A DNA stretch of 64,000 nucleotides, taken from contig JACJVZ010000001.1 in assembly GCA_020637445.1 (NCBI GenBank), forward strand, positions 85,108-149,107, read 5' to 3'. Under the pieces are notes generated by a model. It was given only the letters and a program-made list of their open reading frames with translations, made no database searches and was not told the DNA's origin. Below, in pieces: positions 2,303 through 46,119 of the stretch; the stretch's first letter is position 1; each line of letters starts with the position of its first letter. This DNA comes from Calditrichota bacterium (lineage in GTDB: Bacteria > Electryoneota > RPQS01). A program made the translations under genes and the position numbers.

Positions 2303-2327
2303 CAAATCATGTATCAGGGAGAAAAAG

Positions 2328-8300: not shown

Positions 8301-9164
8301 AAGTCAGCGGCGACTGCAAGGTCGGGTCTTGTTGCCAAGAGCAGCAAGATCATCGATCACCATGTGGAACTTGCGAAATGGCGAGAGTTCAGGGATGTAT
8401 CAAAGTCACCTGCGAACCGTCAGACAGCAATAGCCATCGGCAAACAGTTCTTGAATGAGTATCCAAATTCACCGCTTGTTCCTGCTGCTGTCATTCAATT
8501 GACATCCTTGGCGAAGCGTTCTAATGGTAAGTCAGAGATTTCTTCCTATCTTGCGCAACAGGCGTTGACAACGAAGAATGAATCGCACCGCGCATTGTTC
8601 ACGCGCAAAGCATATGTTGCCAAGGCGTTCGAAGGTAATCCAAGCGACGCTCTTGCGGGACTTGAAGGATTGGTCGAGACTTCTTTGACGAAGCGTGACT
8701 CGATCTGCGCGCTGGCGGATGCAATTGGCATCTACGCGGCCTTTAGGTCGAGCAATGATTTGACACCAAAGCATGAGTTTGTCAAAACAGCAACGTTGCC
8801 GGATCTCAAGCTTCGTATCAGAGAACTGTCTCGACGGCTTGATGGAAGTACGTTGGAAGCGGCGGAAAACGAAGTCCCGATACCGACATCCTATTCACTT
8901 TACCAGAACTACCCGAATCCGTTCAACCCCACGACGGAAATCCGTTTTGACCTTCCGGAAGCGGTTCGCGCGGAACTAAAGGTGTTTAACATCCTCGGTC
9001 AGGAGGTCGTGACTCTGGTGGACGACGTGCGAAACGCGGGTGCCTATCGCATCCTCTGGGACGGCAAGAACGCCGCCGGACTATCAGTGGCGTCTGGTGT
9101 CTATATCTATCAGTTGAAGACTCCGAACTTCACAAATGCCAAGAAAATGATGCTGCTCAGATAG
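2328..9164 (+). CDS. Giant (2279 aa) secreted right-handed beta-helix repeat protein with T9SS C-terminal sorting domain
   Basis: The six-frame ORF starts at 2199 but overlaps the upstream gene. The internal ATG at 2328 is preceded by AGGGAGAAAAAG and followed by the signal peptide MKRTLIGILAFVWVVCITHSGYA. Internal NosD/pectate-lyase-like beta-helix repeats (NCTFED..., IENCDFVDNADNGIYG..., TCSNFHGNGD). C-terminal YPNPFNPTTEIRFDLPE...KVFNILGQEV matches the T9SS C-terminal domain. Confidence 0.7.
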   Translation: MKRTLIGILAFVWVVCITHSGYAHWYDVKPGIQSTDTTGLDNTPTVLTDTVLIVYTADSLEWSAQDLAEQLADSFGITATTAFVSDFYAADCGLSPGNDQIMLTTQTDGLSAYASSSSVIGDRLFNIVPGTYAANEAYAILAPGDTFGTPAYSAKCVKCFIASKSVRGVLYGVTTLIDALETASDSVLLWPAIVKDFPTFSRRIIGEPYDLHSTVPWSTSLDHADGILTGARDLLLKNKGNGFMQFGAITGDGLDSAGTIYSRLRTGDTTSTHVDTWDNLGMDWYQGTGRWGGTNPLRKRGKSSAEICKTVTFDTTFVYSGSPAITLKPVETEYDVPNFNFDENSFEGWDQNSITGWNLATDGTNFIARSPSIAESSVVSLSRLIPLQDSVGLPMRQLVLEFKARLNSGSSADMWIESLMPPDSNGLPITSEDTHTSGDFRNFDVNHSDAGSRYKHTLTTTWQTLHVVFLSYGMKWDRFTFKFESLSGNSQVDFEGVRLIESEVYFLTMLHNESGNRPLPNYAYLVIDSLGIPVFTTTSELAPVNRYSNQYSSLFWSEPIMAVRSNHVGGRSFADLQVDSIYTGRLFYHTLCTNALPAFFDTLVPLQPFAYNTNGTANWTGPILDNTNTAFWVADTAAQNLADNMQAVEILWDSLGPEMPYSGYFNRSNEHRHFGWSKMEEGLADSNSWTLSDMYVDFCGHVADSINTRLSKSAPLLLYSDMLNPYHNGQLISRVNNPFALLNGYDVSTTNFSTNSEDQPLVFVDWWSKNVSDTSHATGIVNAYTSILSPANQNWEAMFAFLPEDRVNDNTFAARESLYVEIALACSLRREAGYNFSGGGLLYDSEVMSPDWAEFKAREEFLQLWWKNDPVTWAAVAFDRQVASSQSSQNATYKCYPVPYPDDSEAEVDSAVLQYRFNGGGNWETQKVTYQSDSLYDFSLSLPDSGGYVQYRVWAFDDLGRYGSNPPYGTKWTDPESGESSYFTFERRKTDAIAKPDTFWLPGVISKEHVVKGGGRLVFQPLPGYKHATLYVENDAKIRVLDNFSKVIFNGSDTSYIHVKPACPTCTWKGIEDSIGVVKKSFVTFEEGTGIATEFKYAESDTSVYLESVAYKDTVKVIGPTKISGTATFNKLIVDSGATLTILPGSELSFFEGGQLLVRDGGQLIAFGNDSTAIAFKAAVDGSPWEGIHCEVALAAEACSLEYVSVSGAVAGLLVDHGRAHVKNSTFEDNSYGIMVNNGGWVVAESCSLTINGTGLLTTNLSSVELSDVVATNNTGVGIKALSRSSLYLSDCLINDNDGDGLAGGIGLYTGSSAFMECTEVDANTGSGITAYGGTLMLTSVEEIGDTLTQWHGNRIEHNVTIPYEGQITLRDRVALALWNGHNCIQDTSGAGKLIHWEDQVGSDRWADTYWGSLDTSSIKSKLPSSVTLVRIDSSASNCPTFAEDTGVNDSLVQIFLEPHNNELSGYTSSAESSYKAVIRNAPSSDYAFTACDRLLNICLLDNKDFDALVDTLEVLYGNTSSTSLKRWIKNVQAWATAEDGDFEKAQGRLDSLAQYTPTRFDRVSARVQRQLLEIRELDHDTTTEYKASDCVAYLDSAQKVLELMKVWTNTTISDSVVLYAPTTVEGLITISQPNGRLTILPHPGAEGATVRFVSNGGIQVNGSNTSIGRGKLYVYGEADNRVNLMWDSSSAYGNIYSTSGYVDLKHVNLTGTGWVNINEDPFGYWRTPIFIADSCTFSGFDEGLWLFGATDSCEISNCTFEDLGGGAVGFTGMDGSGLSMVYSSNVVIENCDFVDNADNGIYGYYCDNIDVSEADVSGSGDYGLLAWESANFDITCSNFHGNGDTLAEIWVEDGLVNLVGGHTQVSDSDGVLIYSGDASYTDIEDGENSFDLLDGTGYYLKLGDTTATWDVTYNVWAPLTPADSGFYSKLYPSTPSKWTIDSSLAAFIECGGGGTSSLGGQNLIVVGEDESSGTSSTESDGLTKKSSSLSKSAATARSGLVAKSSKIIDHHVELAKWREFRDVSKSPANRQTAIAIGKQFLNEYPNSPLVPAAVIQLTSLAKRSNGKSEISSYLAQQALTTKNESHRALFTRKAYVAKAFEGNPSDALAGLEGLVETSLTKRDSICALADAIGIYAAFRSSNDLTPKHEFVKTATLPDLKLRIRELSRRLDGSTLEAAENEVPIPTSYSLYQNYPNPFNPTTEIRFDLPEAVRAELKVFNILGQEVVTLVDDVRNAGAYRILWDGKNAAGLSVASGVYIYQLKTPNFTNAKKMMLLR

Positions 9165-9634: not shown

Positions 9635-10690
9635 ATGCACATTTGGATTCATGACTGTCTCGTCACTCGTTTGACGATCTTGACGCTGTCAAGTGTGAAG
9701 AGAAAAATTGCAGTTTTGATTATTGCCGTGATAAGTGTTCTCTCAGCATGCGGAGGTAGTAACACATCTCTGGAGAAGGAGGCACAGCGGGGGCGATTTG
9801 ATAAGATTCTCGAGAAAGTTAGCACCAGACTTCAAAAGAATATCTGCGATAGCCTTACTCTTCACGGCATAGACTTGCTACTTGATTCAAGAAATGCTGA
9901 GAAAGTAGGCTGGGATGTAATCAAAGAGCAAGCTACTCAGTGCTATCCAACACCTAGTGGGTTAAGAATTCGAAGCGCGCTGGCAGTGAAACATCCAGCA
10001 GTTTTGGACAGCATGTTCTGGCACACGATACGTGTATGGGCATCTGATCAAAACTTGAGCGCAGTTTCGGCGGTGGGACAAGGTTATCTTGGTTTGAAAA
10101 CAGGTCGTATGACATTTGTAAGCTCCCTTGTGAATATTTCAAATAGCATTCAGGAGCAAGTGGCCGCCAAAGGTCATGCCCAAGCTTGCTTGCCTCGGCT
10201 TGAACGAGAAATGTCAAATTCACACCTGGAGCCAATAAACTCGCAGTCACTGACGGCATATATGATTGCAAATACAGGATATCGTCAATACGAGATTGCG
10301 CTGCCGGAGCAGACATATCTTGGAAGGATGCCTTCTGATCGACATGCGGTACTAATTACAAAACAATCCTCTTTTGAATCGACGGGATGGTTTACGATTC
10401 GCGTGCGACGGCTCGATAATTCTGTGGTTAAACTCAGAGAGGAGTTTGGTTCCTTCAACCAAACGTGGCCTGTCTACGAGGAAGTTTCGGATGAAGAGAT
10501 ATCGAATTACAATCGTATGGTCGAGTTAGTCCAGTCCAAGAGTGATTCTCTCGGCTGGGCCCGCGAAACAATAGAAAAGGCAGATTCACGGATAAGAGTG
10601 TTGACAAAGAACTTTAACACTGTGTTAGCATGCAAATGCGATACAACAATAGCTTCTGCAATACCCTTTCTTTCAGGCGAAAAAAAATAG
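9635..10690 (+). CDS. Hypothetical lipoprotein
   Basis: Strong RBS GAAGGAG 6 nt before the ATG. N-terminal hydrophobic segment ends in the lipobox-like LSAC-GG. No recognisable catalytic motifs. Confidence 0.5.
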   Translation: MHIWIHDCLVTRLTILTLSSVKRKIAVLIIAVISVLSACGGSNTSLEKEAQRGRFDKILEKVSTRLQKNICDSLTLHGIDLLLDSRNAEKVGWDVIKEQATQCYPTPSGLRIRSALAVKHPAVLDSMFWHTIRVWASDQNLSAVSAVGQGYLGLKTGRMTFVSSLVNISNSIQEQVAAKGHAQACLPRLEREMSNSHLEPINSQSLTAYMIANTGYRQYEIALPEQTYLGRMPSDRHAVLITKQSSFESTGWFTIRVRRLDNSVVKLREEFGSFNQTWPVYEEVSDEEISNYNRMVELVQSKSDSLGWARETIEKADSRIRVLTKNFNTVLACKCDTTIASAIPFLSGEKK

Positions 10691-10727
10691 AAGTTCTGAT
10701 GCGTCATGAAGAGCTTTTGAGACTGAA

Positions 10728-10760
10728 GAAGACCTGAATCTACAGGTCTTCTTTTATTTT
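10728..10760 (+). terminator. Rho-independent terminator
   Basis: GAAGACCTG-aatcta-CAGGTCTTC followed by TTTTATTTTT. Confidence 0.6.
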
Positions 10761-10966
10761 TGAAGTCACACGAAAAAAAGTAACAATTACACGATTTCGG
10801 GACATCATTAGGGGGTACCCAGGGACATAGAAAAACCAACAAAAAAATTCCGAACTCGGTTTCGAGACCAGGTTCGGAATGATTCTTAGGGTATTAGGCG
10901 GATAGAAATACTGGTGGGGTTTATGTAGAAGCCGTGGCTTTTCGTGAAAGCATGCTCTTTAATCCC

Positions 10967-11027: not shown

Positions 11028-12176
11028 ATGATTGTTTTTATTATATTTCCGAGATTCTACTTGTACGGAGTGCAACCAAGCCAGAAGCTCGTGGTGATTA
11101 GGAACCGAACCGTCCTTGAAGCATCAGATGAAGCGGCCTGGCACGGAGTTCGGGCTGGTGATACCGTCAGATTGGCACGAAGACGGTGTCCAGGTCTCGA
11201 AGTTCAGGAGTTTCGGCCAGAAGACTATTCAGATCGTTTCGATCAGGTGTGGTCCAAGGTCGCCGGATTCACGCCGATGGTTCAGACCACAGATCTTCAT
11301 CATGGCTACTTGGATATTACGAAGGACATCAAGCGGTTTGGCGACGCAGATACGATGGTTCGAAGTCTAAATGAAGAGCTGACGAAGACAACGGGCCTTA
11401 ATATCAATTGGGGCGGAGGCGCGGACAAATGGATGGCTTGGCTTGCTCGTGGGCACAACCAGTTTATCACTCCTGCGATGGAGTCTCTTGTCCTGTCTAA
11501 GCTACCAATCGAGTCTATGGCTTTGCCAGAACGAGTTACGGAGCGTCTCCACCATTTCGACATCCATACAGTCGCGCAAGTCATGGCTTTGCCTTCAGGT
11601 TTTCTAGAATCGCATCTCGGATTTGACCGGAACTTTGTGCTGAAGTGCTTGACCAGGCACAAAGAACCCGTTCGACCCAGCTTTCCACCCCGTAAGATTG
11701 AAGCTCACCTGGACATTGCAGAATCAGATGAATTTGCCCGTCAACGGGTGATAAAAGAAGTCGCAAGGGAAATTGTCACACAACTCACAGAAGCTGCCAT
11801 GCAGACCTCATGTTTACGAATATCCTACAAAACTAGAACGAAGAAGCACGAAATTGACCACAGACTCTCGCATGGAGTTCTAAGTGAAGAGCGACTTTCA
11901 AAGATCCTATTTGATTTGCTGCCAGACGGCATACAGCAAAGCCTAAAGAGCATTTGGGTTGAAGTCCTTGGATTACTTCCCCGACAAGTTACCCAAGACT
12001 TGCTTTGGGAAAAGTCCCTAACAAACAACACTGACGAACAGCTTGAACGCACACAAAACAAACTTCACACTCGGTACGGAGTTGATTCATTGGTTTCCGG
12101 AAGCACTGCATATGCACGCCAACGGCCGCGTTTTGCACAGCTAGTATATCAATCACGCGGACTAACCCTACCGTAA
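11028..12176 (+). CDS. imuB: ImuB-like Y-family polymerase homolog (non-catalytic subunit of the error-prone polymerase cassette)
   Basis: The N-terminus IIFPRFYLYG resembles the ImuB LWCPDWP start. UmuC/DinB-like segment AAWHGVRAGDTVRLARRRCPGLEV. Sits immediately upstream of dnaE2. Confidence 0.65.
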   Translation: MIVFIIFPRFYLYGVQPSQKLVVIRNRTVLEASDEAAWHGVRAGDTVRLARRRCPGLEVQEFRPEDYSDRFDQVWSKVAGFTPMVQTTDLHHGYLDITKDIKRFGDADTMVRSLNEELTKTTGLNINWGGGADKWMAWLARGHNQFITPAMESLVLSKLPIESMALPERVTERLHHFDIHTVAQVMALPSGFLESHLGFDRNFVLKCLTRHKEPVRPSFPPRKIEAHLDIAESDEFARQRVIKEVAREIVTQLTEAAMQTSCLRISYKTRTKKHEIDHRLSHGVLSEERLSKILFDLLPDGIQQSLKSIWVEVLGLLPRQVTQDLLWEKSLTNNTDEQLERTQNKLHTRYGVDSLVSGSTAYARQRPRFAQLVYQSRGLTLP

Positions 12177-12395
12177 CATGGAGCCCGTGAACGTCACATG
12201 TTCTTCAGGTGCGCCAAATTCATTGTTCTGGCGTGGTCAATCACAGCTGATAATCTGCGTCTTAGATCATTGGTGGGAAGCAGGACGCTGGTGGGAGACG
12301 GAAGTAGCACGGGAGTTCTTTCTTGTACTGACGAATCAACGACGCATACTTTTGTGCCGCAACCCTAACTCCGGAGATTGGCTTGCCAAGTCAGC

Positions 12396-15300
12396 ATGAG
12401 ATCACCCGTACCACTTATGGTTCGCAGCGAGTTCAGCTTTCTGAATGGCGCATCGCGGTTGGAAGAGCTTGTCAAAGTTGCTGCCCAACTTGGTTATGAC
12501 ACGCTTGCGCTTACCGATGTAGACCACTTGTGCGGAGTTCCGGAGTTTCTTGGGTTATGCAAACGCCACGGAGTGCGACCGATACTAGGGTTAGAACTTA
12601 CATTAAACACCGGCAGAGTAATCGCCCTTGCCAAATCGCGCAAGGGTTTTGCTTCTCTATGTAGGTTAGTTACGGAATCGCATCTGGAAAATGAACGGCG
12701 TCAGCCCATGCTTCAGGAAGATCGTCTTCTTGATGACGCAGATGACTTGATTCTGATTGCGGGTGGCAATGATGCACCATTCGCATCATGGGTTTATCAG
12801 CAACGCATAGATAGGGCAGAAGCCAGGCTCCGTGGTATGCAAAATAGACTAGGCGCAGATTTTTTCGTGCGCATAGAACGAACGTTACAACCAATGCAGC
12901 AGGAATTCAACGCAAGACTGACGAGCCTTTGTTCGGATTTGAGAATCCCAGTCGTAGCCTGCAACTCTGTTCACTACGCACGTCCTAATCAATATCGCAT
13001 CTTCGATTTGCTATCCTGCATTCGCAACCTAATTAAACTGGACGACCCGCATCCTGAACGACCAATCAATGGATTCGGTTATTTGCAAAGCCCTATAGCT
13101 TTCACAAGACTGTTTGCAGACATGCCACAGGCTTTGGAAATGACTCATTCCATCGCTGATCGCTGCGAGAATTACTCATTGAATGACGAGTTGTATCGAC
13201 CACGGTTTGGCAGCATTTCTGAAGATGCTTCAATCCGCGAACTGTACAAGTTAACAGAAGCTGGTGCCCGAAGAAAATACGGCAGCATCAATGATGAGCT
13301 CGACAAGCGGATCAAATACGAACTTAGTGTCATCACGGATTTAAGTTTTGCAGGATACTTTCTGATCGTCCATGACCTCTTGACTTTTGCGAGGTCAAAA
13401 GGCGTCAGATACGCAGGGCGGGGCAGTTCAGCCGACTCTGTTGTGGCCTTTTGTCTGGACATTACAAAGGTAGATGCTTTCGAGCGCAACCTACGGTTTG
13501 AGAGATTCATCAACCCGGAACGAAAGGAATCGCTGCCAGACATTGATATTGATTTCGACCGTCGGTACCGCGATGAGATAGTTCAATATGTCATTGGCAA
13601 GTACGGACAAGAACACGTCGCAGGCGTGGCATCCTTCAATCGATACAGAGCACGGGGCACGATCCGGGACGTTGCAAAAGCACTAGGCTTTGAAACAGAG
13701 GATATTGACAAGCTGGCCAGGTATTCCCATTGGGCGCTTTCTGCCAAACGGATTGCTTCTACACTCGATAGTAGGCCTGAAATACGATCTTTGCAGGTTG
13801 ACAAGAAGAAGTTCGAACTTCTGTTTGAACTTTGCGCGGGCTTGGATGATGTGCCAAGACACATTTCTGCACATCCATGCGGCGTAATGATAACAGGAGC
13901 GCCGGTTCAGGGAATCACGCCACTTCTGCGTGCAGCCAACGGCATGTTGATTTCGCATTATGACAAAGATGGTGTTGAAGATCTCGGCTTGGTCAAATTT
14001 GATTTGCTTTCATTGCCTACGCTAGGCGTAGTCGAAGATACGGCAGTAATGGTTCGGCAGCATTCGCCCAAGTTTGAGTATGACCAAATCCCACTTGATG
14101 ATGAAAAGACCTTCGAACTGCTACGATCTGGAGAAACCACCGGTGGATTTCAAAATGAAAGCCCAGCACAACAATCCCTCGCACCAAGACTGCAAGCACG
14201 AACCATTGAAGACGTCATTGCTGCCGTCGCGTTGATTCGGCCAGGTCCACTAAAAGGTGATATGGTCGAACCATTTGTCAGGCGTCGAAATGGCACGGAA
14301 GCGGTCACTACAATTCATCCAGTTATCGACACGATTCTGGAGCACACCTACGGCGTCGTTTTGTACCAAGAACAGGTAATCAGTATCGCAGTAGAACTAG
14401 CTGGGTTCACACCCGGCCAAGCCGATGTCTTACGCAGGACTATTTCTCACAATCGATCGTATGAGAAGATGGCCGAATTAGGCGAACAGTTTGTGAAACA
14501 GGCCATTGAACGCGGTGTTGAACCAGATTTGGCGCAGAAAGTCTTTACTTGGATTCAAGGCTACGCAGGATATGGCTTTTGTGAAGCACACGCAGCTTCA
14601 TTTGGGGATACGAGTTACAAAACAGCCTATCTACTTCAACATCATCCAGCTGAATTCTACGCTTCGCTACTGAATCATCAACCAATGGGGTTCTTTCCGG
14701 CTGCCACGTTGATGAATGAAGCCAGGCGAAGGGGAATTGCCGTTTTGGGACCGGATTGTAATAGCAGTGGTGCCACAACTACAGTCCAAAATGGGGCGAT
14801 TCGAATTGGGCTATTGCAGATTTCGGGAATGAACGAGGCGGAAGCGAAAGAAATAACTGGTGCAGCTCCGTATGTCTCGTGGGGTGATTTTGTACGGCGC
14901 GTTCGACTGAATCGCGACCTACTGGAGAACCTTGTTTTGTCAGGTGCGTTTGACTCGCTTCACAAGAATCGCAAAGAACTACTTTTCAGCTTAGGGACAA
15001 TTCTGCCGCCGATTGATACGGGCAAGCTTACGCTGGCCTTGGATCTTGAACCGGTGATTTCACGCAGACCGGACTTTGATGCCTTCACGCGTTCAATGCA
15101 GGAACATCGCGTTCTGGGCTTTTCACCAGATCGGCATATTATCTCTTTCTGGCGGGAGTCACTTGCGAAGCGGGGGATTCAGACATGCAGAGAAGTAAAG
15201 ACCAATCAAGATTCCAAAACAATTCTGTCAGCAGCCGGAGTTGTAATACGACCACACACACCACCAACTAAGTCCGGCAAACGAGTCATTTTCTTCTCCC

Positions 15301-15479
15301 TCGAAGATGAATCCGGACTATTGAACGTCACGGTCTTTCCGGACGTGCAGGAGAAGTTTGGTCATCTGATTCCAGGTCAATCAATGCTGGTTGTCACGGG
15401 CAGAAAGGACAAGCGTGGCAGCAATGGACTGACTGCGTCGCATCTGGCGCCACTTCCCAATAGATTTGGAAAAAAGTAA
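12396..15479 (+). CDS. dnaE2: Error-prone DNA polymerase III alpha-subunit homolog DnaE2 (ImuC)
   Basis: PHP domain start MVRSEFSFLNGASRLEELV. Pol III alpha motifs (HYDKDGVEDLGLVKFDLLSLPTL; GVVLYQEQV). About 1030 aa, which fits DnaE2 rather than the replicative DnaE. The start is taken at ATG 12396 or 12417; the six-frame ORF begins at a TTG at 12378. Confidence 0.85.
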   Translation: MRSPVPLMVRSEFSFLNGASRLEELVKVAAQLGYDTLALTDVDHLCGVPEFLGLCKRHGVRPILGLELTLNTGRVIALAKSRKGFASLCRLVTESHLENERRQPMLQEDRLLDDADDLILIAGGNDAPFASWVYQQRIDRAEARLRGMQNRLGADFFVRIERTLQPMQQEFNARLTSLCSDLRIPVVACNSVHYARPNQYRIFDLLSCIRNLIKLDDPHPERPINGFGYLQSPIAFTRLFADMPQALEMTHSIADRCENYSLNDELYRPRFGSISEDASIRELYKLTEAGARRKYGSINDELDKRIKYELSVITDLSFAGYFLIVHDLLTFARSKGVRYAGRGSSADSVVAFCLDITKVDAFERNLRFERFINPERKESLPDIDIDFDRRYRDEIVQYVIGKYGQEHVAGVASFNRYRARGTIRDVAKALGFETEDIDKLARYSHWALSAKRIASTLDSRPEIRSLQVDKKKFELLFELCAGLDDVPRHISAHPCGVMITGAPVQGITPLLRAANGMLISHYDKDGVEDLGLVKFDLLSLPTLGVVEDTAVMVRQHSPKFEYDQIPLDDEKTFELLRSGETTGGFQNESPAQQSLAPRLQARTIEDVIAAVALIRPGPLKGDMVEPFVRRRNGTEAVTTIHPVIDTILEHTYGVVLYQEQVISIAVELAGFTPGQADVLRRTISHNRSYEKMAELGEQFVKQAIERGVEPDLAQKVFTWIQGYAGYGFCEAHAASFGDTSYKTAYLLQHHPAEFYASLLNHQPMGFFPAATLMNEARRRGIAVLGPDCNSSGATTTVQNGAIRIGLLQISGMNEAEAKEITGAAPYVSWGDFVRRVRLNRDLLENLVLSGAFDSLHKNRKELLFSLGTILPPIDTGKLTLALDLEPVISRRPDFDAFTRSMQEHRVLGFSPDRHIISFWRESLAKRGIQTCREVKTNQDSKTILSAAGVVIRPHTPPTKSGKRVIFFSLEDESGLLNVTVFPDVQEKFGHLIPGQSMLVVTGRKDKRGSNGLTASHLAPLPNRFGKK

Positions 15480-15838
15480 GCCTCGACCGATTTGGTCAAG
15501 GCTTTTTAGGGTAAGTAGATTGGATGCATCTTAGGCACCCGATTCCAACGGCGAACCTACTGGATTCTTAACATCACCCCAATGCGACCAGTGGTCCAAC
15601 CACATACCAGTGAAGTTGGGAGCTTGTGGCACACGTTCATCATGAATTGGGTAGTCGACATCTGGTTTTATTGTCTTCCGGTTGTTTTCGATCGGTCGAT
15701 GAGGCAGAAAGAAATGCTGAATCGAATCTGACTTTCGCCTGAATCCGAGTTGTTTTAGTGTTTTTGTTGTGGGGTTTAGTGTGGATGTTGTCATGAATAT
15801 TCTTTCGTGATTTCTTGCGCAGTCTTGCCATTCAGAAA

Positions 15839-16108
15839 TGTAACCTGGATTTTGAATTTGTAACCAGCATGTAACCAACGTAAGGCGAGTATTTTCTAAC
15901 GTGTAACCATGTAACCAATTTTTGCGATACACACCCCACTATAAATGATTTTTTGATCGTCGTATTCAGCATTGAATCTAGTGAATTGAATTTTCTATAA
16001 TGAGAGTATCGTTCTAAAAAGGTTACAAGGTTACATTACTATTTCTACTCCACTTACGTGGTTACAATCAGGTTACATGAAGGTTACATTTTAGGAAAAC
16101 AGGTTACA
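15839..16108. repeat. Iteron-type origin candidate: 5x TGTAACC (15839-15916), a ~100-bp AT-rich spacer, then 6x GGTTACA (16021-16108) in mirror-image spacing
   Basis: Left heptamer starts: 15839, 15859, 15870, 15902, 15910. Right heptamer starts: 16021, 16029, 16059, 16071, 16082, 16102. The spacings mirror each other (left 20/11/32/8, right 8/30/12/11/20) around an AT-rich centre at 15917-16020. The region lies just downstream of, and overlaps the 3' end of, the replicase gene. Confidence 0.6.
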
Positions 16109-18997
16109 ATTATTATCAAAAGGTTTTTGTTTTGGCGTTTTCTTATTCGGCGTTTGACTTTCGTCGTCGTCTGCAAGCGATCTGCTGATTGCTTCAAAGC
16201 CCGATAGATCCAGCCCAAGCGTCGTTGCCAATTCTATGTCAACAATGATGCATTTCTTCGGCGCACTCTTCTTGCCATAACTATCATTCTTGAATCTTAC
16301 GGGGTGGTTTGTCTTAACGACAAATTCCTTTCGCGAATCAAGCTGCTTTTGATAGGCTGCGTAGTCACTTATTTCACCGTCGTAACCAATTCGACTGGCA
16401 TTTGCAGCAAATACTTGCGCTGCAGTCCTAAGGTGAATTGCGAGATATTCTTTGCTCGAGTCCAGACTTCTAATGTTTACGAACGCATAGTCTACATGCT
16501 GTTTCGCTAAGTCTCTTTCAGCCATTATTGCGAGTTGTTCGAGCAAGTAGTCAAACGAAAGTTTCACTTGACCATTGCCAGCACCAGTAACTTCTTCGAT
16601 TTGGATGTCGATCGCTTTCTGCAGGTCGATCTGCCCAGCCATCGAAATGCCGTACTTTGCTGCAAAGTCTTGCATCAACGTCAAACCGAACACCATGGCA
16701 GTAATGTTGTTTTGAATGCGGGGTGCGACATGCTTGTCGCCATACAAAGCTTTTGCAGTATTTTCTGCGTCAGCCAATCGCGCTGCCACATCCACTCCCA
16801 AGCAGAAAGGAATATATTGTGTCATGAAAGCCTGAAGATCAAGACCCTTCAAAGATCTAAATGCTGTTTGGCAAGCACTGTTCTTCTTGATTTCATCTGT
16901 GAATCCTGCAATCAACACACGTTCCAGAACGGCTGATTCCTTTACCTTGGATTCACCACACAAAACCACCGGTGCGGTCAAGTGGTAGTGTGTTACGGTC
17001 TGATCAGGATTACCCTTGTCTTCGATTTCTCCACGATAAACTTTGCGCAGCATTCTGGTCAGGTCCATTACCTGGCCATCACGCATATCGTATGGTTTGA
17101 ACTCGTCTAGGACGACAGGTACTGCATTTGTACTACTGAGCAGTTTCAGCATCGGAAACTGTTTCATGGTGCATGAAGACACAACAGGATCATCGTAACC
17201 GTGCAACGACATCATCAATTCCAGAAGTGAAGTCTTTCCGCCGCCCTGTGTACCATAACAGAACAATGCTGGGAAACTTCCGACTAAGTCCGTGATGCGT
17301 GGCTTCAACGGGACGGCGAAAAACCAACCTAGAATAGGCAGCATCACTTCCGGCTGATTGACGGCAAGAATATTGTTGAAGAATGTGTTGATAATGGATG
17401 CATAGTCAGTATCAGACATCTGCGAATATTTAACACGCGCATGAAGCGAATCCGAACTTTTGTCAAAAGGCATGATTTGCATCGGATTGATCTGACCGGC
17501 AGCGGTCAAATTCAGATCACGAACAACCCAAATGTCGTCGTGCAATCCAATACTGCGGGTTCCCTGTTTTCTAACAGCAACCTTAGATATGACATGCTGA
17601 CAGACGTCGATTACGTCCAGGTCGCTGCCATGAAAAGTTCCTTCGCTGTGCTTGGTTGCTTTCATGAACTTTCCACGCGTGTGCCAATCCGTGTTTTCGA
17701 TAGTAATCCCGGTCCATTCCTGACCGGAGATGTGTTTGATTGTGCAGTTCAAAACATCGCCGTCTGGCAGCATTAACAGTTCGCCAGCATCGATCGTAAA
17801 TGGCGTCAGCATGATAAAATCGCCGTTCTTTCCAATCTTGCCATAGCATCCGCTGCGTTCCACAATCGGGCTATCAATCGGGTCATACTTAGAAGCCCAA
17901 CCTGCAGGCGCTTTGGGAGCACCCACAGGCAATTCGAACTTCACGCCCTGATCCGCAAATGTTTCATAGCTTTGTGGGCCATTCCAGTTTTCGGCGATAT
18001 CGCAATACAGGTCATCTAGCTTCTCCTGGCTGAATCGCTCGGGTTCGCGCTTGCTCAATTCGGTAAATCGATCCCAACCACCCGTTTTTACCAAGTAGTT
18101 GGAGCCAACTCCCACCCAAGGGTCATAGTCCCACCCACAAGGGTTCTCTTCGAACATCCGAATTATTGGGCAGTGTTCGATCATACTGGCTAGACCTGGC
18201 TGATTCAATTGAATGCCGGAATTGGAAGCGTGCAACTTTGCATGGTCGACTTTCGAATTGCCAATAACACGCTTTACCGCCATTGCTGAGTTGCGCTGGA
18301 CTTCATCCAAAGTACGCACCGGATCATCAACAGGCTGAAAGTTTGTTGGATTAAGCAATTCACTTCGCTGACCAGACACCTTATGCAGTGCGAATGGTAG
18401 TTTTAGTAGGTTGCCAAGCCCTTTCTTCCCACTTATGGAATCTTGTTTGGGAAAGATTTCAATATGCAAACCGTCGGGCAGCATACCGATCTTTGAAATT
18501 AGTACACGACCAAGTTGTTTTGCCTGGGCCGCAGGAAACAATTCTTCAAACAACAGTATAACGTGGTATCCCTTGCGGCCACTAAATTCTAACAATGCAT
18601 GCAAGCCCAAGTCTTCACATGCCGAAAGCAGCTTGCACGCGGTGTCCTGAAGTGCGGGAAGGTACTCAAGTACCTTGTCTGTGTGTTCTTTGTTGACATC
18701 AATATCCAAGGCAAGGAATTTTACTTTGTCGTCCTTGTCAATGGGATAGATGCCGATAGTTGTGTCGCCTGCGACGTGATTCTGCAGATCGACAAGCGTT
18801 AGTTCGCAATTCTGCGGGTAATAGTCGCCATTCGATTGTTGAACGGCATAGTTGTCGGTTCTTGTAACAAACCTATGTAGTAATCCCGACGCAACCAGAA
18901 GCACCTGCGCCGGGTTGGTATCAAACTTGTTATCATTATTATGCTGTGTGGTAGCTGTCAGTGGTTCTTCCACTGCGTACGGTAATGCCATTCTCAT
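16091..18997 (-). CDS. Replicase: N-terminal archaeo-eukaryotic-type primase-polymerase (PrimPol) domain fused to a C-terminal D5/P4-like SF3 helicase P-loop NTPase
   Basis: AEP motifs IGIYPIDKDD...FLALDIDVN...SGRKGYHVILLF near the N-terminus. Walker A GTQGGGKTSLLELMM in the C-terminal half. 968 aa. Adjacent to the iterons. Confidence 0.75.
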   Translation of the reverse strand: MRMALPYAVEEPLTATTQHNNDNKFDTNPAQVLLVASGLLHRFVTRTDNYAVQQSNGDYYPQNCELTLVDLQNHVAGDTTIGIYPIDKDDKVKFLALDIDVNKEHTDKVLEYLPALQDTACKLLSACEDLGLHALLEFSGRKGYHVILLFEELFPAAQAKQLGRVLISKIGMLPDGLHIEIFPKQDSISGKKGLGNLLKLPFALHKVSGQRSELLNPTNFQPVDDPVRTLDEVQRNSAMAVKRVIGNSKVDHAKLHASNSGIQLNQPGLASMIEHCPIIRMFEENPCGWDYDPWVGVGSNYLVKTGGWDRFTELSKREPERFSQEKLDDLYCDIAENWNGPQSYETFADQGVKFELPVGAPKAPAGWASKYDPIDSPIVERSGCYGKIGKNGDFIMLTPFTIDAGELLMLPDGDVLNCTIKHISGQEWTGITIENTDWHTRGKFMKATKHSEGTFHGSDLDVIDVCQHVISKVAVRKQGTRSIGLHDDIWVVRDLNLTAAGQINPMQIMPFDKSSDSLHARVKYSQMSDTDYASIINTFFNNILAVNQPEVMLPILGWFFAVPLKPRITDLVGSFPALFCYGTQGGGKTSLLELMMSLHGYDDPVVSSCTMKQFPMLKLLSSTNAVPVVLDEFKPYDMRDGQVMDLTRMLRKVYRGEIEDKGNPDQTVTHYHLTAPVVLCGESKVKESAVLERVLIAGFTDEIKKNSACQTAFRSLKGLDLQAFMTQYIPFCLGVDVAARLADAENTAKALYGDKHVAPRIQNNITAMVFGLTLMQDFAAKYGISMAGQIDLQKAIDIQIEEVTGAGNGQVKLSFDYLLEQLAIMAERDLAKQHVDYAFVNIRSLDSSKEYLAIHLRTAAQVFAANASRIGYDGEISDYAAYQKQLDSRKEFVVKTNHPVRFKNDSYGKKSAPKKCIIVDIELATTLGLDLSGFEAISRSLADDDESQTPNKKTPKQKPFDNNCNLFS

Positions 18998-19229
18998 TTG
19001 CCTTTCTCTTAATATCGAAGACCAAAGTCTTCATCATGGTCTGTGCATTCAAAAAGTCCTGCACCCGCACAGACAGGGTATTGCGGAAAAATCCGTCTTC
19101 GATCGCCTTAATTTCGGGGCAGTCATCGAAACGGAAGAAGATTCGTCCAAGGTCGTCCACGTAGTAGTCTACGAATTGGTGGCCCTTGGCTTTCAAAGTC
19201 GTTATCAATCCAAAATCTTTTGTTTTCAT
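18939..19229 (-). CDS. Hypothetical small protein upstream of the replicase (its 3' end overlaps the replicase start)
   Basis: 96-aa ORF in the same orientation as the replicase. No motifs recognised. Confidence 0.3.
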   Translation of the reverse strand: MKTKDFGLITTLKAKGHQFVDYYVDDLGRIFFRFDDCPEIKAIEDGFFRNTLSVRVQDFLNAQTMMKTLVFDIKRKANENGITVRSGRTTDSYHTA

Positions 19230-21750: not shown

Positions 21751-24417
21751 ATGAAACAAGATAAAATAACGCTCTCGCAACTGGAGAGCTTTCTCTTTAA
21801 GGCTGCGGATATTCTTCGTGGCAAGATGGACGCTTCCGAATTCAAAGAGTTTATTTTCGGAATGCTTTTCATCAAACGAATGTCTGACGAGTTCGATCGA
21901 AAACGAGCTGAACTTCGCCGGCAGTACAAGCACTTACCTGCCGATAAGCTGGAATCACTTCTCGAAGACAAGACTTCCTACGGCGATACGTTCTTCGTTC
22001 CCAAGCGCGCCCGCTGGAGTGAAGAATGGGTAGACGAAAATGGTAAGCAAGTCCCCGCACTAAAGCACCTCAAGGAAGACATTGGAGCAATGCTGAACAA
22101 AGCATTGGCGGCTATCGAGGAAGCAAACGATGCCCTGTACGGTGTATTGAAATCCAATATCGTATTTACATCGGGCAAAGGCAAAGAAGGTAAGACTAAA
22201 GTTAGTGATAGTCAGTGGAAAGACCTACTCGATCACTTCAATGATCCGAAGTTTGTGCTGGTCAACGAAAACTTCGAATTTCCTGATCTGCTCGGTGCGG
22301 CGTACGAATATTTGATTAAGTACTTTGCAGACAGTGCCGGTAAAAAGGGCGGCGAATTCTATACGCCCGGCGAAGTAGTTCGATTGTTAATCCAGCTGGT
22401 TCGCCCACAATCCGGAATGACTATTTATGACCCCACGGCTGGCAGTGGTGGCTTTCTGATTCAATCACATCAGTATATCGAGGAGCAAGGGCAAAACCCG
22501 GAAGACATTTTTCTTTACGGCCAAGAATCGAATGGTACAACTTGGTCAATCAGCCAGATGAACATGATTCTGCACAATATCACGAAGTTCCTTATTGAGA
22601 ACGATGATACATTGCAGAATCCCTTGCATCTCGACGGAAATCAAATTAAGAAATTCGATATCGTGCTGGCAAACCCGCCGTTCTCGCAGAACTACAGTCG
22701 TACAGACATGAAGTTTGAAAGCAGGTTCCGCGAGTTCTGTCCTGAAAAAGGTAAGAAGGCTGATTTGATGTTCGTTCAGCATATGGCGGCGAGCTTGAAG
22801 TCTAAAGGACGAATGGCGACCATTATGCCTCACGGCGTTCTGTTTCGTGGCGGCAAAGAGAAGATCATTCGAAAGCTACTAATTGACGACAATATCATCG
22901 AAGCAATCATAAGTTTGCCTCCTGCACTTTTTTACGGTACCGGGATTCCTGCCTGCGTCCTGGTTATCAACCGAAACAAACCGGACACGATGCAGGACAA
23001 GATTCTGTTCATCAATGCCGACGCGGAATACGGTGAAGGGAAAGTTCAAAACAAGCTTCGCCCTGAAGACGTAGAGAAGATTGATTACGTCTTCACCAAC
23101 AAGCTTGAGATTCCTAAATACTCCCGTTTGGTAACTAAGGAAGAGATAATCAACACGCACGACCTGAACTTGAACATTCGCCGATATGTGGACAATACGC
23201 CTGATCCTGAACCCGAAGATGTGCAGGCGCATCTGATTGGTGGCGTGCCGATCCCAGAAGTCGAGGCACTCCAACCCATATACGACAAATTCAAATTCAA
23301 TCCCGAAGTCATTTTTCAGCCGGACCGGGAAGGCTATTTGGCGTTTCGTGCTGAGATAGATGGTAAGTCAAAGATCCGCGAATTGGTTGATGCGGACCCA
23401 GGAGTCCAAGAAACGCTGCAGGCCATGCATTCAGCGATTGAAGAGTGGTGGGACGTGGCGAAGGCGGACTTCGTGAAACTTGAAAATGACCGAAATAGTC
23501 TGCCAACGGTTCGCAAGGAACTCTTGGACCAAATCAAAAACAAGTTGATTCCTTTGGGAGTTCTCGATCAATTCCAAGCGGCGGGTGTGTTCGTCAACTG
23601 GTGGACGAAAATTCGCTACGACTTGAAGACGATCAGCAATCTCGGCTGGGTGCACATCCTGCTACCGGACGATTATCTAGTTCGCGAGTTCTTCCAGACC
23701 GAGCAAGACGAATTGGATCAACTTGACTCCTCGCTTAATGAAGAAGAAGCCACTCTTCAGGAAGCAGTCGAAGCCGTAGAATACGAACCCGACGAAGACG
23801 AAAAGGTGACGGCGACCGTAGTCAAGGGCTATCTAAAAGATACGATAGAGGATCTGGAAGATTCGACCGATGAGGCGGCCATTGCCGAACGATCTATGCT
23901 TGAAACACAACTTGCTGCAATCAAAACAAGCGAAAGTGCAATCAAGCAGTTAAAGATAGACATTAAGGAGAAGCAATCCGAGCTTGAGGAAAAGCTGGAG
24001 TTCAAGCGAAACGGGATTGATGACACAAAGATTGGACTGGAATCGCTACTGCTGCAAATTGATAAAGAACTGTCGACGATGAATCCCGAATCGAGGGCGA
24101 ATCAGAGAAAGATAAGTGCACTGGAAAGCGACAAGAAGAATATAGAGGCTCGAATTGCAGGACTTGAAGTACAACTCGCAGCCATCGGAGGGATAATATC
24201 AGCTGATCAATGCGAAGCTCTAATTCTGAAGAAACTGCATGATTTTGTAGACACCGAGCTTGGCAGATACCTCGCGGAAGCAATAAGAACGTTAGTCTCT
24301 AAATGTGAGAATTTGTATTCAAAATATGCATTCGACTTTGGCTCGTTAGCTGACAACAGTCAGCAAATTCAAGAAAGCATGGCACAAGTCTTTGTGGATT
24401 TGGGGTACAGGCCGTGA
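21751..24417 (+). CDS. hsdM: Type I restriction-modification N6-adenine methyltransferase HsdM, unusually long (888 aa) with a ~350-aa coiled-coil-like E/K/L-rich C-terminal extension
   Basis: HsdM_N-type start ([41 protein letters not shown]). Catalytic NPPF motif ([10 protein letters not shown]). AdoMet-binding region ([11 protein letters not shown]). Overlaps hsdS by ATGA. Confidence 0.85.
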
Positions 24418-25715
24418 TCGATTGTGAACACTGGGACGAGCGTCCAATTACCGATTTAGCTGACTTCATTGACGGATACGCGTTTGCGCCCGACGATTGG
24501 AGTAGGGAAGGTCTGCCTATCATTCGAATCGAACAACTTCGGAATTTTGATTCAGTTAGTGATTGGTATAGTGGAACATTGCCTATTGAAAATATTATCG
24601 AGAATGGCGATCTAATATTCTCCTGGAGTGCATCGCTCTTCTTAAAGATTTGGTCCCACGGAAAGGCAGCCCTTAATCAGCACCTTTTCAAAGTCGTGGA
24701 GCATGATGGTGTTGACCGACTGTATCTAAAGTACCTGATTGAATACAATTTGCCGCGACTTAAGAATGCGTCTCACGGGTCGACGATGCAACATGTCACT
24801 AGACGTGAGTTGCGGCAGTTTTTGGTTAGATATCCAATCAAAGAGTCAGAACAAGCCCTGATTGCTGCTTTGCTTCAAACCGTGGACAAAGCCATTGAGC
24901 AAACAGAAGCGATGATTGCCAAGCAAGAGCGAATCAAGACTGGATTGATGCAGGATCTGCTTACGAAAGGGATTGATAAGCACGGCAACATCCGCTCTGA
25001 AGCCACACACAAATTCAAGGACTCGCCGCTGGGCAGGATTCCGGAAGAATGGGAATGCGATGCCTTGGGTGCATATCTGAATTCTGGCGGAGGGTTTATT
25101 CAAACGGGACCATTCGGGAGCCAACTTCATTCCTATGAATACGTCGATGAAGGGATTCCGGTTGTAATGCCTCAAGATATGCTTGATGACGAGATCAGCC
25201 TGAAGTCTATTGCCCTCATAACTCCTAAGCGCGCGAAGGATCTTTCGCGACACAAAGTGGAAGTGAACGATGTTCTCTTTGCCCGCCGCGGCGAGCTAGA
25301 TAGATGTGCAGCAATCTATGAGAGAGAACAAGGCTGGATTTGTGGAACGGGATGCTTACTAATGCGGATGGCACGATCAAATCTTAATCCAACATGGGTG
25401 ACAATGACCTACAAGCATCACCGAATACAGAGACAAGTGCTTGCGCACGCTGTCGGATCTACAATGATAAACCTTAATCAAGGACTGCTTAAGGATCTCT
25501 CATTTCCGCGTCCAAGCCTTGCGGAACAACATGAGATCTGCCTAAGATTATCGACCTTTGACGCCTCGCTGTCTGGCCAGCATGTACTGCTCGGCAAATT
25601 GCAGTTACTTAAGTTAGGCCTCATGCAAGACCTTCTATCCGGCAAGGTCCCCGTTACGCATCTTCTAAAGCAAAGTGGTTCCGCAGATGTGGAGAATGTC
25701 GCATGCCCCGCGTAG
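24414..25715 (+). CDS. hsdS: Type I restriction-modification specificity subunit HsdS (two target-recognition domains)
   Basis: 433 aa with two repeated TRD halves separated by a conserved helical spacer ([11 protein letters not shown]... and [11 protein letters not shown]...). Lies between hsdM and hsdR with overlapping stops and starts. Confidence 0.8.
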
Positions 25716-28840: not shown

Positions 28841-28845
28841 TTACA

Positions 28846-29520: not shown

Positions 29521-29635
29521 TACGCTGCTCCATACACGAGCATCATACAAAAGTATCTCATCGCATGAAAATGCCAAAACTCATACATGATTTCGCAACA
29601 CCGATTCTCGGTTAATCACCGAGGACAGAGTACCT

Positions 29636-30919: not shown

Positions 30920-31035
30920 TGTCTTGGCTAAGAAGAACTTTGCTTCTGATCGAGAAGTGGCGGGTGCTTTATACCACGGTTAGACCACATAACACACTGG
31001 GCTATCCGCCACCCGCGCCGGAAGCAGAAAACAAT

Positions 31036-31113
31036 AGCTTCCGTCTCCGCCAAGCTGCGACGGAAGTAACCAAGTGTAATCCTACAACTGGTACAGAGAA
31101 TGGGGGCAGACCA
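31036..31113 (+). repeat. Direct repeat copy 1 (hairpin CTTCCGTC/GACGGAAG followed by the core TAATCCTACAACTGGTACAGA...GGGCAGACCA)
   Basis: Homologous over ~85 bp to 37527-37599. The hairpin has compensatory substitutions relative to copy 2. Contains a 21/21-nt identical core. Confidence 0.7.
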
Positions 31114-31196
31114 TTGTGACCTTCGTTTGGACCAAAAACTCACTGAAGATACAAAGCGAGAGTAAGGCATAGCCTACAATCAATAGAGGGCATTCT

Positions 31197-33901: not shown

Positions 33902-33907
33902 CACGTC

Positions 33908-44529: not shown

Positions 44530-44817
44530 GTGAAATCCGTGGGCGAAAAGCTGGACGAGATCCTCGAAATTCTTCGAGAGTATCGCGTTGAATCCGGTGA
44601 AGCGGTTTGGCTCACGCCGGAGGAAGCGGCCGATCGTCTGCGGATTTCGCGTTCGCGCATCTACCAGTACATTCACGAAGGGAGCATCCCATTCCACCGA
44701 TTGCCCGAGTCGAATTTGATTCGACTGAACACGCTCGAACTCGATGCGTGGGTACGGAGTGGGTCGCAACCGCCAAGACAAGTCTCGAAAGAAGCAATCA
44801 GGAGGATTCTAAAATAA
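44530..44817 (+). CDS. Excisionase-family HTH DNA-binding protein (Xis-like)
   Basis: LTPEEAADRLRISRSRIYQYIHEGSIPFHRL is a MerR-like excisionase HTH. Its stop TAA overlaps the integrase start (TAATG). Confidence 0.65.
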   Translation: MKSVGEKLDEILEILREYRVESGEAVWLTPEEAADRLRISRSRIYQYIHEGSIPFHRLPESNLIRLNTLELDAWVRSGSQPPRQVSKEAIRRILK

Positions 44818-45842
44818 TGCCCGTCACGGTACGATGGACAGAAAGGAAAAAGGGTCGAACATACTTTCTCGACATCGTTCACGACGGCCGCAGGAAGAAG
44901 GTGTCGCTCGGCCCAGTTAGCAGTCGCGAGGCTCGCGAAATCGCCGCACGAACGGAGCGTGAACTTCTACTCAATGGTTGGCCCGACGACAAGCCAGGCA
45001 ATCTGACGTTTTCAGAGTTCATGACGCAGTACTTCGACTACTGCATTGCAACAAAGTCTGGCAGCACGGTGAAGACGGATCGATATGCGCTCCAAACCTT
45101 CGCGAAGTACATCGGAAACGCGCAGTTGTCCGAAATCACGACCGACAAGATTGAAGAGTTCCGGCTGTATTTGCTGCGAAAAGTGAAGCCCAATTCCGTG
45201 AACGTTGTGCTTCGTCATTTGAAATCAGCGATGTCCTGGGCTGCCCAACGAGGTCTGATTTCAGCGAGCCCGGCAGCGAAGGTGAAACTGAACCGTGTAC
45301 CCCGGAACACGCACATGCGATTCCTCGACGACGCAGAGATCCAACGCCTACGGGACGCAATAGGCGATGACCTTCAACTTCGGCGCGTAGTAGACTTCGC
45401 GTTGTGGACGGGTCTGCGCCGCAATGAGATAGTGAACTTGCAATGGTCGGATGTCGATTTGAATCGTAAGGTGCTCATCGTTCAGAATAAGGCAGGGTTC
45501 CGCACCAAGTCGGGCAAGTCACGCAGCGTACCGATAAACAGCCAGCTTGAAGAGATGCTGAACGTGATGAAGGCCGCTGGCGCGAGACATGGAGATCACG
45601 TCTTCCCTTTGAACTATTGGACATTGGGCCAGCATTTCCGACGTGTTGCGCGTGCGGCCGGGTTGGACGGATTCAACCTTCACACGCTACGACACACGTT
45701 CGCATCGCATTTGATCATGGCCGGTGCTGACATTCGGTCCGTGCAGGAACTCTTAGGTCATCACGACATCTCGGTAACAATGATCTACAGCCATTTAAGT
45801 CGCGACCATCTAACAGCGACCGTCGAGAAGCTGAAATACTGA
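44817..45842 (+). CDS. int: Tyrosine site-specific recombinase (phage-type integrase)
   Basis: C-terminal catalytic region ...HTLRHTFASHLIMAGADIRSVQELLGHHDISVTMIYSHL carries the R...H-x-x-R...Y signature. RBS AGGAGGA lies upstream of ATG 44817. The longer six-frame extension from 44607 is rejected. Confidence 0.85.
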   Translation: MPVTVRWTERKKGRTYFLDIVHDGRRKKVSLGPVSSREAREIAARTERELLLNGWPDDKPGNLTFSEFMTQYFDYCIATKSGSTVKTDRYALQTFAKYIGNAQLSEITTDKIEEFRLYLLRKVKPNSVNVVLRHLKSAMSWAAQRGLISASPAAKVKLNRVPRNTHMRFLDDAEIQRLRDAIGDDLQLRRVVDFALWTGLRRNEIVNLQWSDVDLNRKVLIVQNKAGFRTKSGKSRSVPINSQLEEMLNVMKAAGARHGDHVFPLNYWTLGQHFRRVARAAGLDGFNLHTLRHTFASHLIMAGADIRSVQELLGHHDISVTMIYSHLSRDHLTATVEKLKY

Positions 45843-46027: not shown

Positions 46028-46046
46028 TTAGCAGGGCTTTAACCAG

Positions 46047-46119
<73 letters not shown>

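Follow-up and report, generated by a model that had tools for sequence, protein, structure and literature searches.

What is a cluster of short inverted repeats doing at the very end of a gene for a primase-helicase? The question is raised by a stretch of 64,000 nucleotides from a Calditrichota bacterium (the window), in which rep, the gene for a primase-helicase-initiator of 968 amino acids (aa), runs into eleven copies of one heptamer (Table 1). On computational evidence we consider it very likely that these repeats are the vegetative origin of replication (ori) of a mobile element, integrated and about 30 kb long, with anti-phage defence genes, and that the origin is fired by the element's own initiator, Rep.

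On the + strand, TGTAACC starts at 15839, 15859, 15870, 15902 and 15910, and its reverse complement GGTTACA starts at 16021, 16029, 16060, 16071, 16082 and 16102. A sequence-only reading of the window had described eleven heptamers in two inverted arrays of five and six; this description stands, apart from one start that it placed at 16059 and that is at 16060. The mirrored spacing that it had pointed out was borne out as well, with steps of 20, 11, 32 and 8 bp on the left and 8, 31, 11, 11 and 20 bp on the right. About the mirror axis at 15968.5 the inner two pairs fit exactly, the following two deviate by 1 bp and the outermost pair by 10 bp, and the steps are roughly multiples of one helical turn, the inner doublets excepted. 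The window holds 17 copies of the heptamer against 4.6 +/- 2.3 expected by shuffling (none of 100 shuffles reached 17), and 11 of the 17 fall within 270 bp, for which the rate outside the cluster predicts about 0.03 copies. Other 7-mers in the window form clusters of at most 4 to 6 copies, and no second cluster of the heptamer was found elsewhere in it. The stop codon of rep, at the end of a reading frame that closes with ...NNCNLFS*, is at 16091-16093 on the minus strand, so that the heptamer at 16102-16108 lies in the last codons of rep, where it encodes C-N-L 8 bp ahead of the stop codon; the other copies lie beyond. The repeats are thus directly downstream of the gene and overlap its end, as had been proposed from the letters alone.

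Between the arrays lies the AT-rich stretch of about 100 bp that the same reading had noticed. It measures 104 bp and is 70% AT, compared with 50% for the whole window, and only 0.04% of all 104-bp windows are equally AT-rich. Among related loci the middle of this core is variable and both of its edges are conserved. Each array also contains a second motif, and the two copies form an inverted pair. Its 11-bp core, TACTCGMCTTA, occupies 15881-15891 and 16046-16056, with a third, degenerate occurrence on the border of the AT-rich core (15998-16008), and AATACTCGACTTA from this motif is kept even where Rep is only 41-54% identical. The conserved block at the Rep-proximal core edge holds both the degenerate copy and a -10-like TATAAT, and its pattern GA[TA]AC.CTC.TTATA is still recognisable in diverged loci. 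No DnaA box with one mismatch or fewer was found within 15700-16250, and an Rfam scan of the window and three loci returned tRNA only.

Table 1. Coordinates of the features discussed; rows that name a locus (L) refer to that locus, all others to the window.
Feature	Position	Strand	Remarks
Rep-distal iteron array	15839..15916	+	five TGTAACC, inverted relative to the proximal array
AT-rich core	15917..16020	.	presumed DNA-unwinding element
Rep-proximal iteron array	16021..16108	-	six heptamers, TGTAACC on the Rep strand; last one inside the final rep codons
Second motif, distal-array copy	15878..15891	.	TACTCGCCTTACGT on minus strand, also given as ACGTAAGGCGAGTA; inside 32-bp spacer
Second motif, proximal-array copy	16046..16059	.	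TACTCCACTTACGT on + strand; inside 31-bp spacer
Conserved block, Rep-proximal core edge	15996..16018	.	TATAATGAGAGTATCGTTCTAAA on + strand; invariant in 5 loci
Conserved block, Rep-distal core edge	15925..15943	.	CGATACACACCCCACTATA on + strand; GGTGTGT on the Rep strand
rep	16091..18997	-	968-aa primase-helicase-initiator; domain and predicted-fold evidence
DUF5659 gene	18939..19229	-	96 aa; PF18903, E 1.2e-6; overlaps rep start
Conserved small open reading frame	15531..15794	-	87 aa; ATG at 15794; directly after origin
Type I restriction-modification (HsdM, HsdS, HsdR)	21751-28840		YgjP-like peptidase alongside
GmrSD	37731-39743
Nmad2-domain protein	39736-41241		overlaps GmrSD stop
Tyrosine integrase	44607..45842	+	presumed recombinase of the element; at the end opposite to rep, adjoins tRNA-Lys
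tRNA-Lys(CTT)	46046..46119	-	presumed integration landmark
Conserved non-coding element	10839-10960	-
Conserved non-coding element, L020	1849-1973
Conserved non-coding element, L043	3501-3620
Conserved non-coding element, L046	13009-13130
Conserved non-coding element, L047	13631-13750
Conserved non-coding element, L057	~11300-11420
Beta-helix/NosD flanks	14-9164		also in L001, L043, L047, L048, L052, L055 and L057; ThiF-family gene often nearby
GTGAACA/TGTTCAC cluster, L003	944-1251		Myxococcota, DnaG-type relative
GTGAACA/TGTTCAC cluster, L011	4446-4757		Myxococcota, DnaG-type relative
GTGAACA/TGTTCAC cluster, L017	983-1289		Myxococcota, DnaG-type relative

Evidence that the arrays belong to rep comes from 13 related loci, of which 12 encode a Rep that is 41-82% identical or shares only the C-terminal module, and one (L057) has had its helicase swapped. 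The sequence-only reading had made itself depend on homologous islands carrying iterons at this position, and they do: a two-set array follows the rep stop codon directly in all 13. In eight of them the steps are the same (20, 11, 11, 31 and 8 bp, then 8, 32, 11 and 20 bp) and the spacers have diverged. The close relatives (L001, L018, L020 and L043/44/45), whose Rep is 75-82% identical, have the same heptamers at offsets of -17, 3, 14, 25, 56 and 64 and of about 175, 183, 215, 226 and 246 from the stop codon. In the alignment of L001, L018, L020 and L043 every heptamer present is invariant, the L018 contig stopping before the eleventh. The non-coding origin of the close relatives is 84-87% identical to that of the window, compared with 66-74% over the final 900 nt of rep and 47-54% over the ORF (open reading frame) that follows; the origin is therefore better conserved than the coding sequence on either side of it. 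Where Rep is 41-54% identical, the spacers cannot be aligned and the heptamer register is retained.

The word itself drifts between clades, from TGTAACC to AGTTACC, GGTTACA and TGTTACG. The proximal array of L046 and L047 consists of TGTAAC(C/T) and the distal one of GGTTACA; L048 and L053 have AGTTACC and GGTAACT, respectively, and L021, L049 and L052 have GGTTACA proximally and TGTAACC distally, which is the opposite apparent polarity. The heptamer is a near-palindrome, N-GT-W-AC-N, and the three classes vary at positions 1, 4 and 7 alone; a flip of polarity could therefore be reached through an AGTTACC intermediate. About six copies per side are usual, and the two sides differ in number (6 vs 5, 6 vs 7 and 7 vs 8).

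Which part of Rep does the word follow? L054, a Bacteroidota-type locus, combines a BT4734-like primase with the same C-terminal module (~42% identity) and has 11 GGTTACA/TGTAACC words past the stop codon, and the marine L056, with an NrS-1-like primase, has four TGTTACG, an AT-rich core and four CGTAACA. L057 has the same type of archaeo-eukaryotic primase (AEP) domain (58% identical over the N-terminal third) joined to a DUF5906/SF3 helicase, and its word is GTGGTAA/TTACCAC in a similar inverted layout. Because L054 and L056 swap the primase and keep the type of word, and L057 swaps the helicase and the word changes, the comparison of these sequences shows that the heptamer follows the helicase-initiator module and not the primase. 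The origin of L057 is at 10683-10830 with an integrase only ~3 kb upstream, and the element is compact (~7.5 kb).

Repeats upstream of a gene could also serve its transcription. The small ORF that follows the origin on the strand of rep matched nothing in Pfam or PHROG, and its homologues, with the family pattern ...LGFRRRK...KPDVDYP.HDERVPQAP.F.GMW.DHWSHWGDV.NPVGSP.ESGA, follow the origin in L001, L020, L043, L047, L049 and the helicase-swapped L057. The best of the alternatives, which we nevertheless regard as improbable, is that the heptamers are operator or promoter sites for this ORF (15794-15531) or for an antisense transcript, bound by Rep, the DUF5659 protein or the small downstream protein, and have no role in replication. 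The arrays fill the whole intergenic region upstream of this conserved ORF, and initiators often autoregulate through their iterons. The core further contains a sigma-70-like TTGAAT-18-TATAAT (15972-16001, + strand, matching at 10 of 12 positions), the -10 of which is within the conserved block. However, such promoter-like matches occur at the frequency expected from shuffles (2 vs 1.8), and arrays with the same geometry are present in L046, L048, L053, L054 and L056, all of which are without the small ORF. Eleven sites in two inverted sets, spread over 270 bp around an AT-rich gap, resemble an origin and not an operator, and the heptamer co-varies with the helicase-initiator module. Autoregulation may exist alongside origin function. 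The promoter-like match itself points antisense into the 3' end of rep, with its -10 in the block that is invariant in five loci, and may activate the origin through transcription or give rise to an antisense RNA.

The symmetry of the arrays admits another explanation, that the region is an imperfect palindrome whose hairpin or cruciform acts as an origin of transfer, a single-strand initiation site or a recombination hotspot, so that the fold would matter and not the heptamers. A 286-nt stretch folded as single-stranded DNA does reach -44.6 kcal/mol, against -22.0 +/- 3.3 kcal/mol for shuffles (z = -6.8), and the arms are 76-85% complementary. This complementarity, however, comes almost wholly from the heptamers and the second motif; the spacers of one arm are unlike those of the other and in relatives change on their own, with no compensatory substitutions, the copy numbers of the two arrays are unequal, and neither a relaxase nor a rolling-circle Rep was found in the element. 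As complementarity of the spacers has not been maintained, the fold is a by-product of the inverted words, and we think this explanation very improbable.

Even less probable is that the heptamers are arm-type sites for the tyrosine integrase or a directionality factor in an attachment (att) architecture. Tyrosine recombinases of integrative elements do use repeated arm sites, and 300-580 bp separate the arrays from what is probably the left end of the element (the dnaE2 terminator at 15478-15504), but no heptamer was found at the integrase end (45.8-46.05 kb), the nearest one being at 46628, outside the element; moreover, every locus has its arrays at the rep stop codon, whether the integrase is 3 kb away (L057) or ~26 kb (here), and the heptamer changes along with the helicase module.

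We return to the origin and to the protein that would fire it. The sequence of Rep is that of a hypothetical protein from a Calditrichaeota metagenome-assembled genome (100% identity). The neighbouring gene had been taken for a primase-polymerase/helicase, and both halves of this assignment agree with what we found. Residues ~40-250 form an AEP primase-polymerase domain with intact LDIDV, GYH and FPKQD motifs; it matches PF22548 (E 3.5e-33) and the CRISPR-associated Prim-Pol (CAPP) structure 7nqd (E 1.5e-28; also 7nqf), with Foldseek TM scores of 0.85-0.89 on the target. A helical linker (aa ~260-370) leads to a module (aa 371-968) that resembles Cch of SCCmec, a staphylococcal cassette chromosome (SCC) element, and Rep of SaPIbov1, a Staphylococcus aureus pathogenicity island (SaPI). 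It consists of a beta-rich N-terminal tier, an AAA+ core and a C-terminal domain, and its Walker A (GGGKTS) and Walker B (VVLDE) motifs are intact and conserved. The full-length AlphaFold2 (AF2) model was poor at aa 370-700 (pLDDT 62) and gave Foldseek matches for the AEP domain only. The C-terminal module was therefore read from an AF2 model built on a 44-sequence alignment (pLDDT 89.5, pTM 0.84), for which Cch and SaPIbov1 Rep were the top fold matches, over the full length. The last ~115 modelled residues (aa ~830-945) are helices and beta-hairpins that are winged-helix-like in the predicted model. Rep is thus predicted to be an AAA+ helicase-initiator with a C-terminal winged-helix-like domain for origin recognition, as in SaPI-type replicons. 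Between the Rep of the window and that of one relative (P0010), the putative recognition domain is 42% identical and the helicase core 73%; no clean residues specific to an iteron class were found in the C-terminal domain among 12 sequences.

The C-terminal module is widespread. Among 44 aligned members it is fused to four unrelated types of primase: the N-terminus is of the AEP-TOTE type in 18, BT4734-like_N (mostly with PriCT_1) in 15, NrS-1-like in 3 and a DnaG zinc-ribbon/Toprim in 3. The module matches the DUF927 protein of a 12.9-kb plasmid of the haloarchaeon Natronococcus and the 'primases' of Halorubrum virus CGphi46 and of Vibrio phages. An exhaustive search returned 1,718 representatives of 50%-identity clusters at E<=1e-3 (1,068 at E<=1e-10), most of which match as the C-terminal part of 800-1,100-aa proteins and are mostly unannotated. 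The relatives in plasmid and phage collections are all distant, and IMG/VR contains two, both of the DnaG type. Fusion to varied primases, matches in plasmids and viruses and a C-terminal place in proteins of this size mark it as a replicative helicase module.

In Myxococcota loci with DnaG-type relatives, about eight GTGAACA/TGTTCAC words in both orientations stand in intergenic DNA 5.5-9 kb upstream of the gene (Table 1). GTGAACA is the core of the phage P4 iteron TGTTCACC, and these clusters may be the origin of those Myxococcota elements. Clusters of CGACAAG upstream of the same relatives were considered as iterons and rejected, as they are Asp-Lys codons inside a gene.

The AEP domain raises the possibility that Rep works in defence, as an effector like those of the CAPP, DRT and TOTE systems, and that the repeats are its regulatory or decoy DNA target. 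We give this as little credence as arm-type sites: its best AEP matches are indeed PF22548 (TOTE), CAPP and DRT UG10, the PADLOC models for PrimPol and UG10 match the domain, and the surrounding cargo includes type I restriction-modification, GmrSD, WYL and Nmad2, but the other two thirds of the protein are a Cch/SaPIbov1-Rep-like helicase, which elsewhere accompanies classical replicative primases including DnaG, and the module is always at the backbone end of elements with varying cargo, a pattern of maintenance. With TOTE, CAPP and DRT systems Rep shares the PF22548-type AEP domain without their partner components; no cas gene, reverse transcriptase or SF2-helicase partner was found fused or adjacent to rep, with a TOTE component list that is incomplete and a literature search for TOTE that came back empty.

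How would the origin work? By analogy with the Reps of SaPIs, we propose that the fast-evolving winged-helix-like domain at the C-terminus of Rep's AAA+ module recognises TGTAACC. The co-variation of the heptamer with the helicase module supports such binding indirectly. The six proximal and five distal copies are opposed and mostly one to three helical turns apart, and each set would recruit one Rep hexamer, perhaps with the orientation of the sites setting that of the ring. The two rings would then melt the AT-rich core and load themselves without a separate loader, the fused AEP primase-polymerase would lay the first primers, and a host polymerase would finish bidirectional replication of the excised circle. 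The element may thus be able to excise and to replicate autonomously.

Several observations weigh against this account of the origin. The second 11-bp motif and the two core-edge blocks are not explained by binding of Rep to the heptamers alone. The reversed polarity of L021, L049 and L052 relative to the core is not obviously predicted by a strict model in which site orientation sets the ring. The fold of the helicase module comes from a predicted structure with only 10-12% sequence identity to Cch and Rep, and Pfam gave no match for aa 371-968, not even with the DUF927 model itself. The nearest sequence relatives of the AEP domain are defence-associated primase-polymerases (CAPP, DRT UG10 and the Pfam 'TOTE conflict system'). 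In DnaG-type relatives (~30% identity) no array was found downstream of the gene. Finally, a window-wide search for a direct repeat of the 300 bp next to tRNA-Lys and the integrase, as expected of an att site, found none at the Rep end; its one notable hit was the 18-bp near-repeat at 34265-34282 and 45895-45912.

The second motif leads to a wider proposal, which we advance only tentatively: that the Rep-ori cassettes, with their Cch-like helicase-initiator, form a large cross-phylum family with GT[AT]AC-core heptamers, frozen geometry and switching of word and polarity, in which TACTCGMCTTA is read by a second factor, such as the DUF5659 protein or the small downstream protein, making this a two-factor origin. 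The DUF5659 gene also overlaps the start of rep in Bacteroidota-type L054 (2675-2968) and L055 (5745-6029) and in the P0050 contig. Its product might assist replication or act as a regulator, and it could also be what reads the second motif.

The closest known design is that of the SaPIs. A SaPI ori has 6-12 short iterons directly downstream of rep, with an AT-rich centre and sides of opposite orientation, and is bound by the C-terminal winged-helix domain of Rep, probably as two hexamers (PMC9371898, PMC7581432); Cch is a DUF927 protein related to SaPIbov1 Rep (PMC7581432, PMC9371898). The window ori is like this in its place, directly downstream of an initiator-helicase gene, and in its 6 + 5 inverted iterons around the AT-rich core. 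What a rep-ori arrangement predicts at the level of sequence was borne out in every case. It differs in detail. SaPIbov1 Rep (PDB 8tch) is only ~12% identical to the Rep of the window, SaPIs use penta- or hexanucleotide iterons and not a heptamer, and SaPIbov1 has a separate pri gene where the window has primase and helicase fused. The host of SaPIbov1 is Staphylococcus, whereas that of the window is Calditrichota, with relatives in Bacteroidota-type and marine contigs. The element of the window, in addition, has defence cargo, no detected packaging genes and a second motif in each array. SCCmec Cch (PDB 5dgk), the member of the family with the best structural match, has no fused primase, unlike Rep here, and for SCC elements no origin had been identified before according to the paper on Cch, while the probable origin in the window is conspicuous. 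In SaPI5 PriRep (PDB 7ola), as in the window, primase and initiator-helicase are one polypeptide and the ori is directly downstream (PMC9371898). The locus is a new example of the SaPI replicon design and not a new design, and in our literature search we came across no earlier account of GGTTACA-type iterons or of this family of Rep proteins.

More distant systems share single traits. The design is reminiscent of the origins of SV40 large T antigen and papillomavirus E1, but these eukaryotic viruses use SF3 helicases with an N-terminal origin-binding domain and far fewer sites. P4 alpha, from a satellite phage that integrates, likewise combines primase and helicase in one protein, and its C-terminal domain binds DNA at short repeated octamers (TGTTCACC) of the origin; it differs in belonging to another protein family and in needing a second cis site, crr, several kb away. 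Classical iteron plasmids (RepA/pi/TrfA) have direct repeats of 17-22 bp on one side of the unwinding element and winged-helix Rep monomers that need host DnaA and DnaB. They are alike in having initiator sites beside an AT-rich unwinding element; we rejected an origin of this kind here, given 7-bp words in inverted sets, no DnaA box within 15700-16250 and a Rep with primase and AAA+ domains. A phage-inducible chromosomal island (PICI) would also have an integrase and a pri-rep-ori module, both of which the element of the window has. Membership in the PICIs or other phage satellites is, however, not supported: the apparent span is ~30.5 kb, where these islands are compact (roughly 8-18 kb) and have genes for packaging or for redirecting capsids (terS, cpm, ppi and the like) as well as a repressor that responds to the helper, and Pfam and PHROG scans of the ORFs, several of which had no matches, found no packaging or phage-interference genes (terminase, capsid, portal, Stl-like). 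The element is not demonstrably a PICI because its size and the absence of detected packaging genes speak against it. The earlier statement that the arrangement is known from phage-inducible islands and plasmids therefore holds for the SaPI-type replicon layout, and not for PICI membership or a classical iteron plasmid.

Relatives of the element retain DUF5659-rep-ori while the upstream cargo varies (methyltransferases with BfiI; E2/ThiF/JAB; SNF2; OLD with UvrD), so that the rep-ori module is backbone and not cargo. In the window, 21751-41241 is dense defence cargo. The other genes to the right of rep are small ORFs without assigned function and genes for SPFH, WYL/WCX, Fis-type helix-turn-helix (HTH), DUF2779 and TPR proteins. 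Left of 46 kb the G+C content is 0.42-0.52, and right of it 0.54-0.57. A direct near-repeat of 18 bp, CGGAGTGAAAATGTCGTC at 34265-34282 and CGGACTGAAAATGTCGTC at 45895-45912 (blastn-short E 0.04), has one copy at the junction of the HTH and DUF2779 genes and the other just past the integrase gene; it might mark a nested, integrase-bearing unit of 11.6 kb, or be due to chance.

At the Rep end, a cassette of imuB (IMS family) and dnaE2 (error-prone Pol III alpha) at 11028-15479 lies between the small ORF and a conserved non-coding element, and a bidirectional terminator (15478-15504) is common to dnaE2 and the small ORF. The non-coding element, of ~125 nt, reads AAGCATGC...ATCTC...AACCAGGnCCCAAA and ends in a terminator hairpin with compensatory changes. 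In relatives it directly follows Rep, ori and small ORF, whereas in the window it is 4.5 kb away with imuB-dnaE2 between, which suggests that the cassette was inserted at, or acquired by, the end of the island. The non-coding element had no Rfam match, and RNAalifold found the terminator hairpin only; it could be a small RNA, or an element end or att region. In nearly all related loci the Rep-ori end is flanked by very large beta-helix/NosD proteins that carry Por_Secre_tail sorting domains (type IX secretion), which suggests that the insertion neighbourhood is conserved or that elements lie in tandem.

If our reading of the origin is right, the DUF5659 gene, rep and the 270-bp ori would be a compact replicon for Calditrichota and other bacteria of the FCB group, for which genetic tools are scarce, and defence islands of these phyla would carry SaPI-like modules for self-replication, which bears on how such islands are amplified and spread. 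Variants of the iteron on a fixed scaffold, together with the swaps of primase and helicase, are material for the study of origin specificity and of double-ring loading. The orientation of the two rings of self-loading helicases has been stated as an open question (PMC9371898), and the natural polarity variants could settle it for helicases of the MCM-like, self-loading kind. Worth following are the geometry that stays fixed while the word drifts, the second motif and the spread across phyla, and the helicase-initiator family of Cch and SaPIbov1 Rep would reach far beyond the staphylococci.

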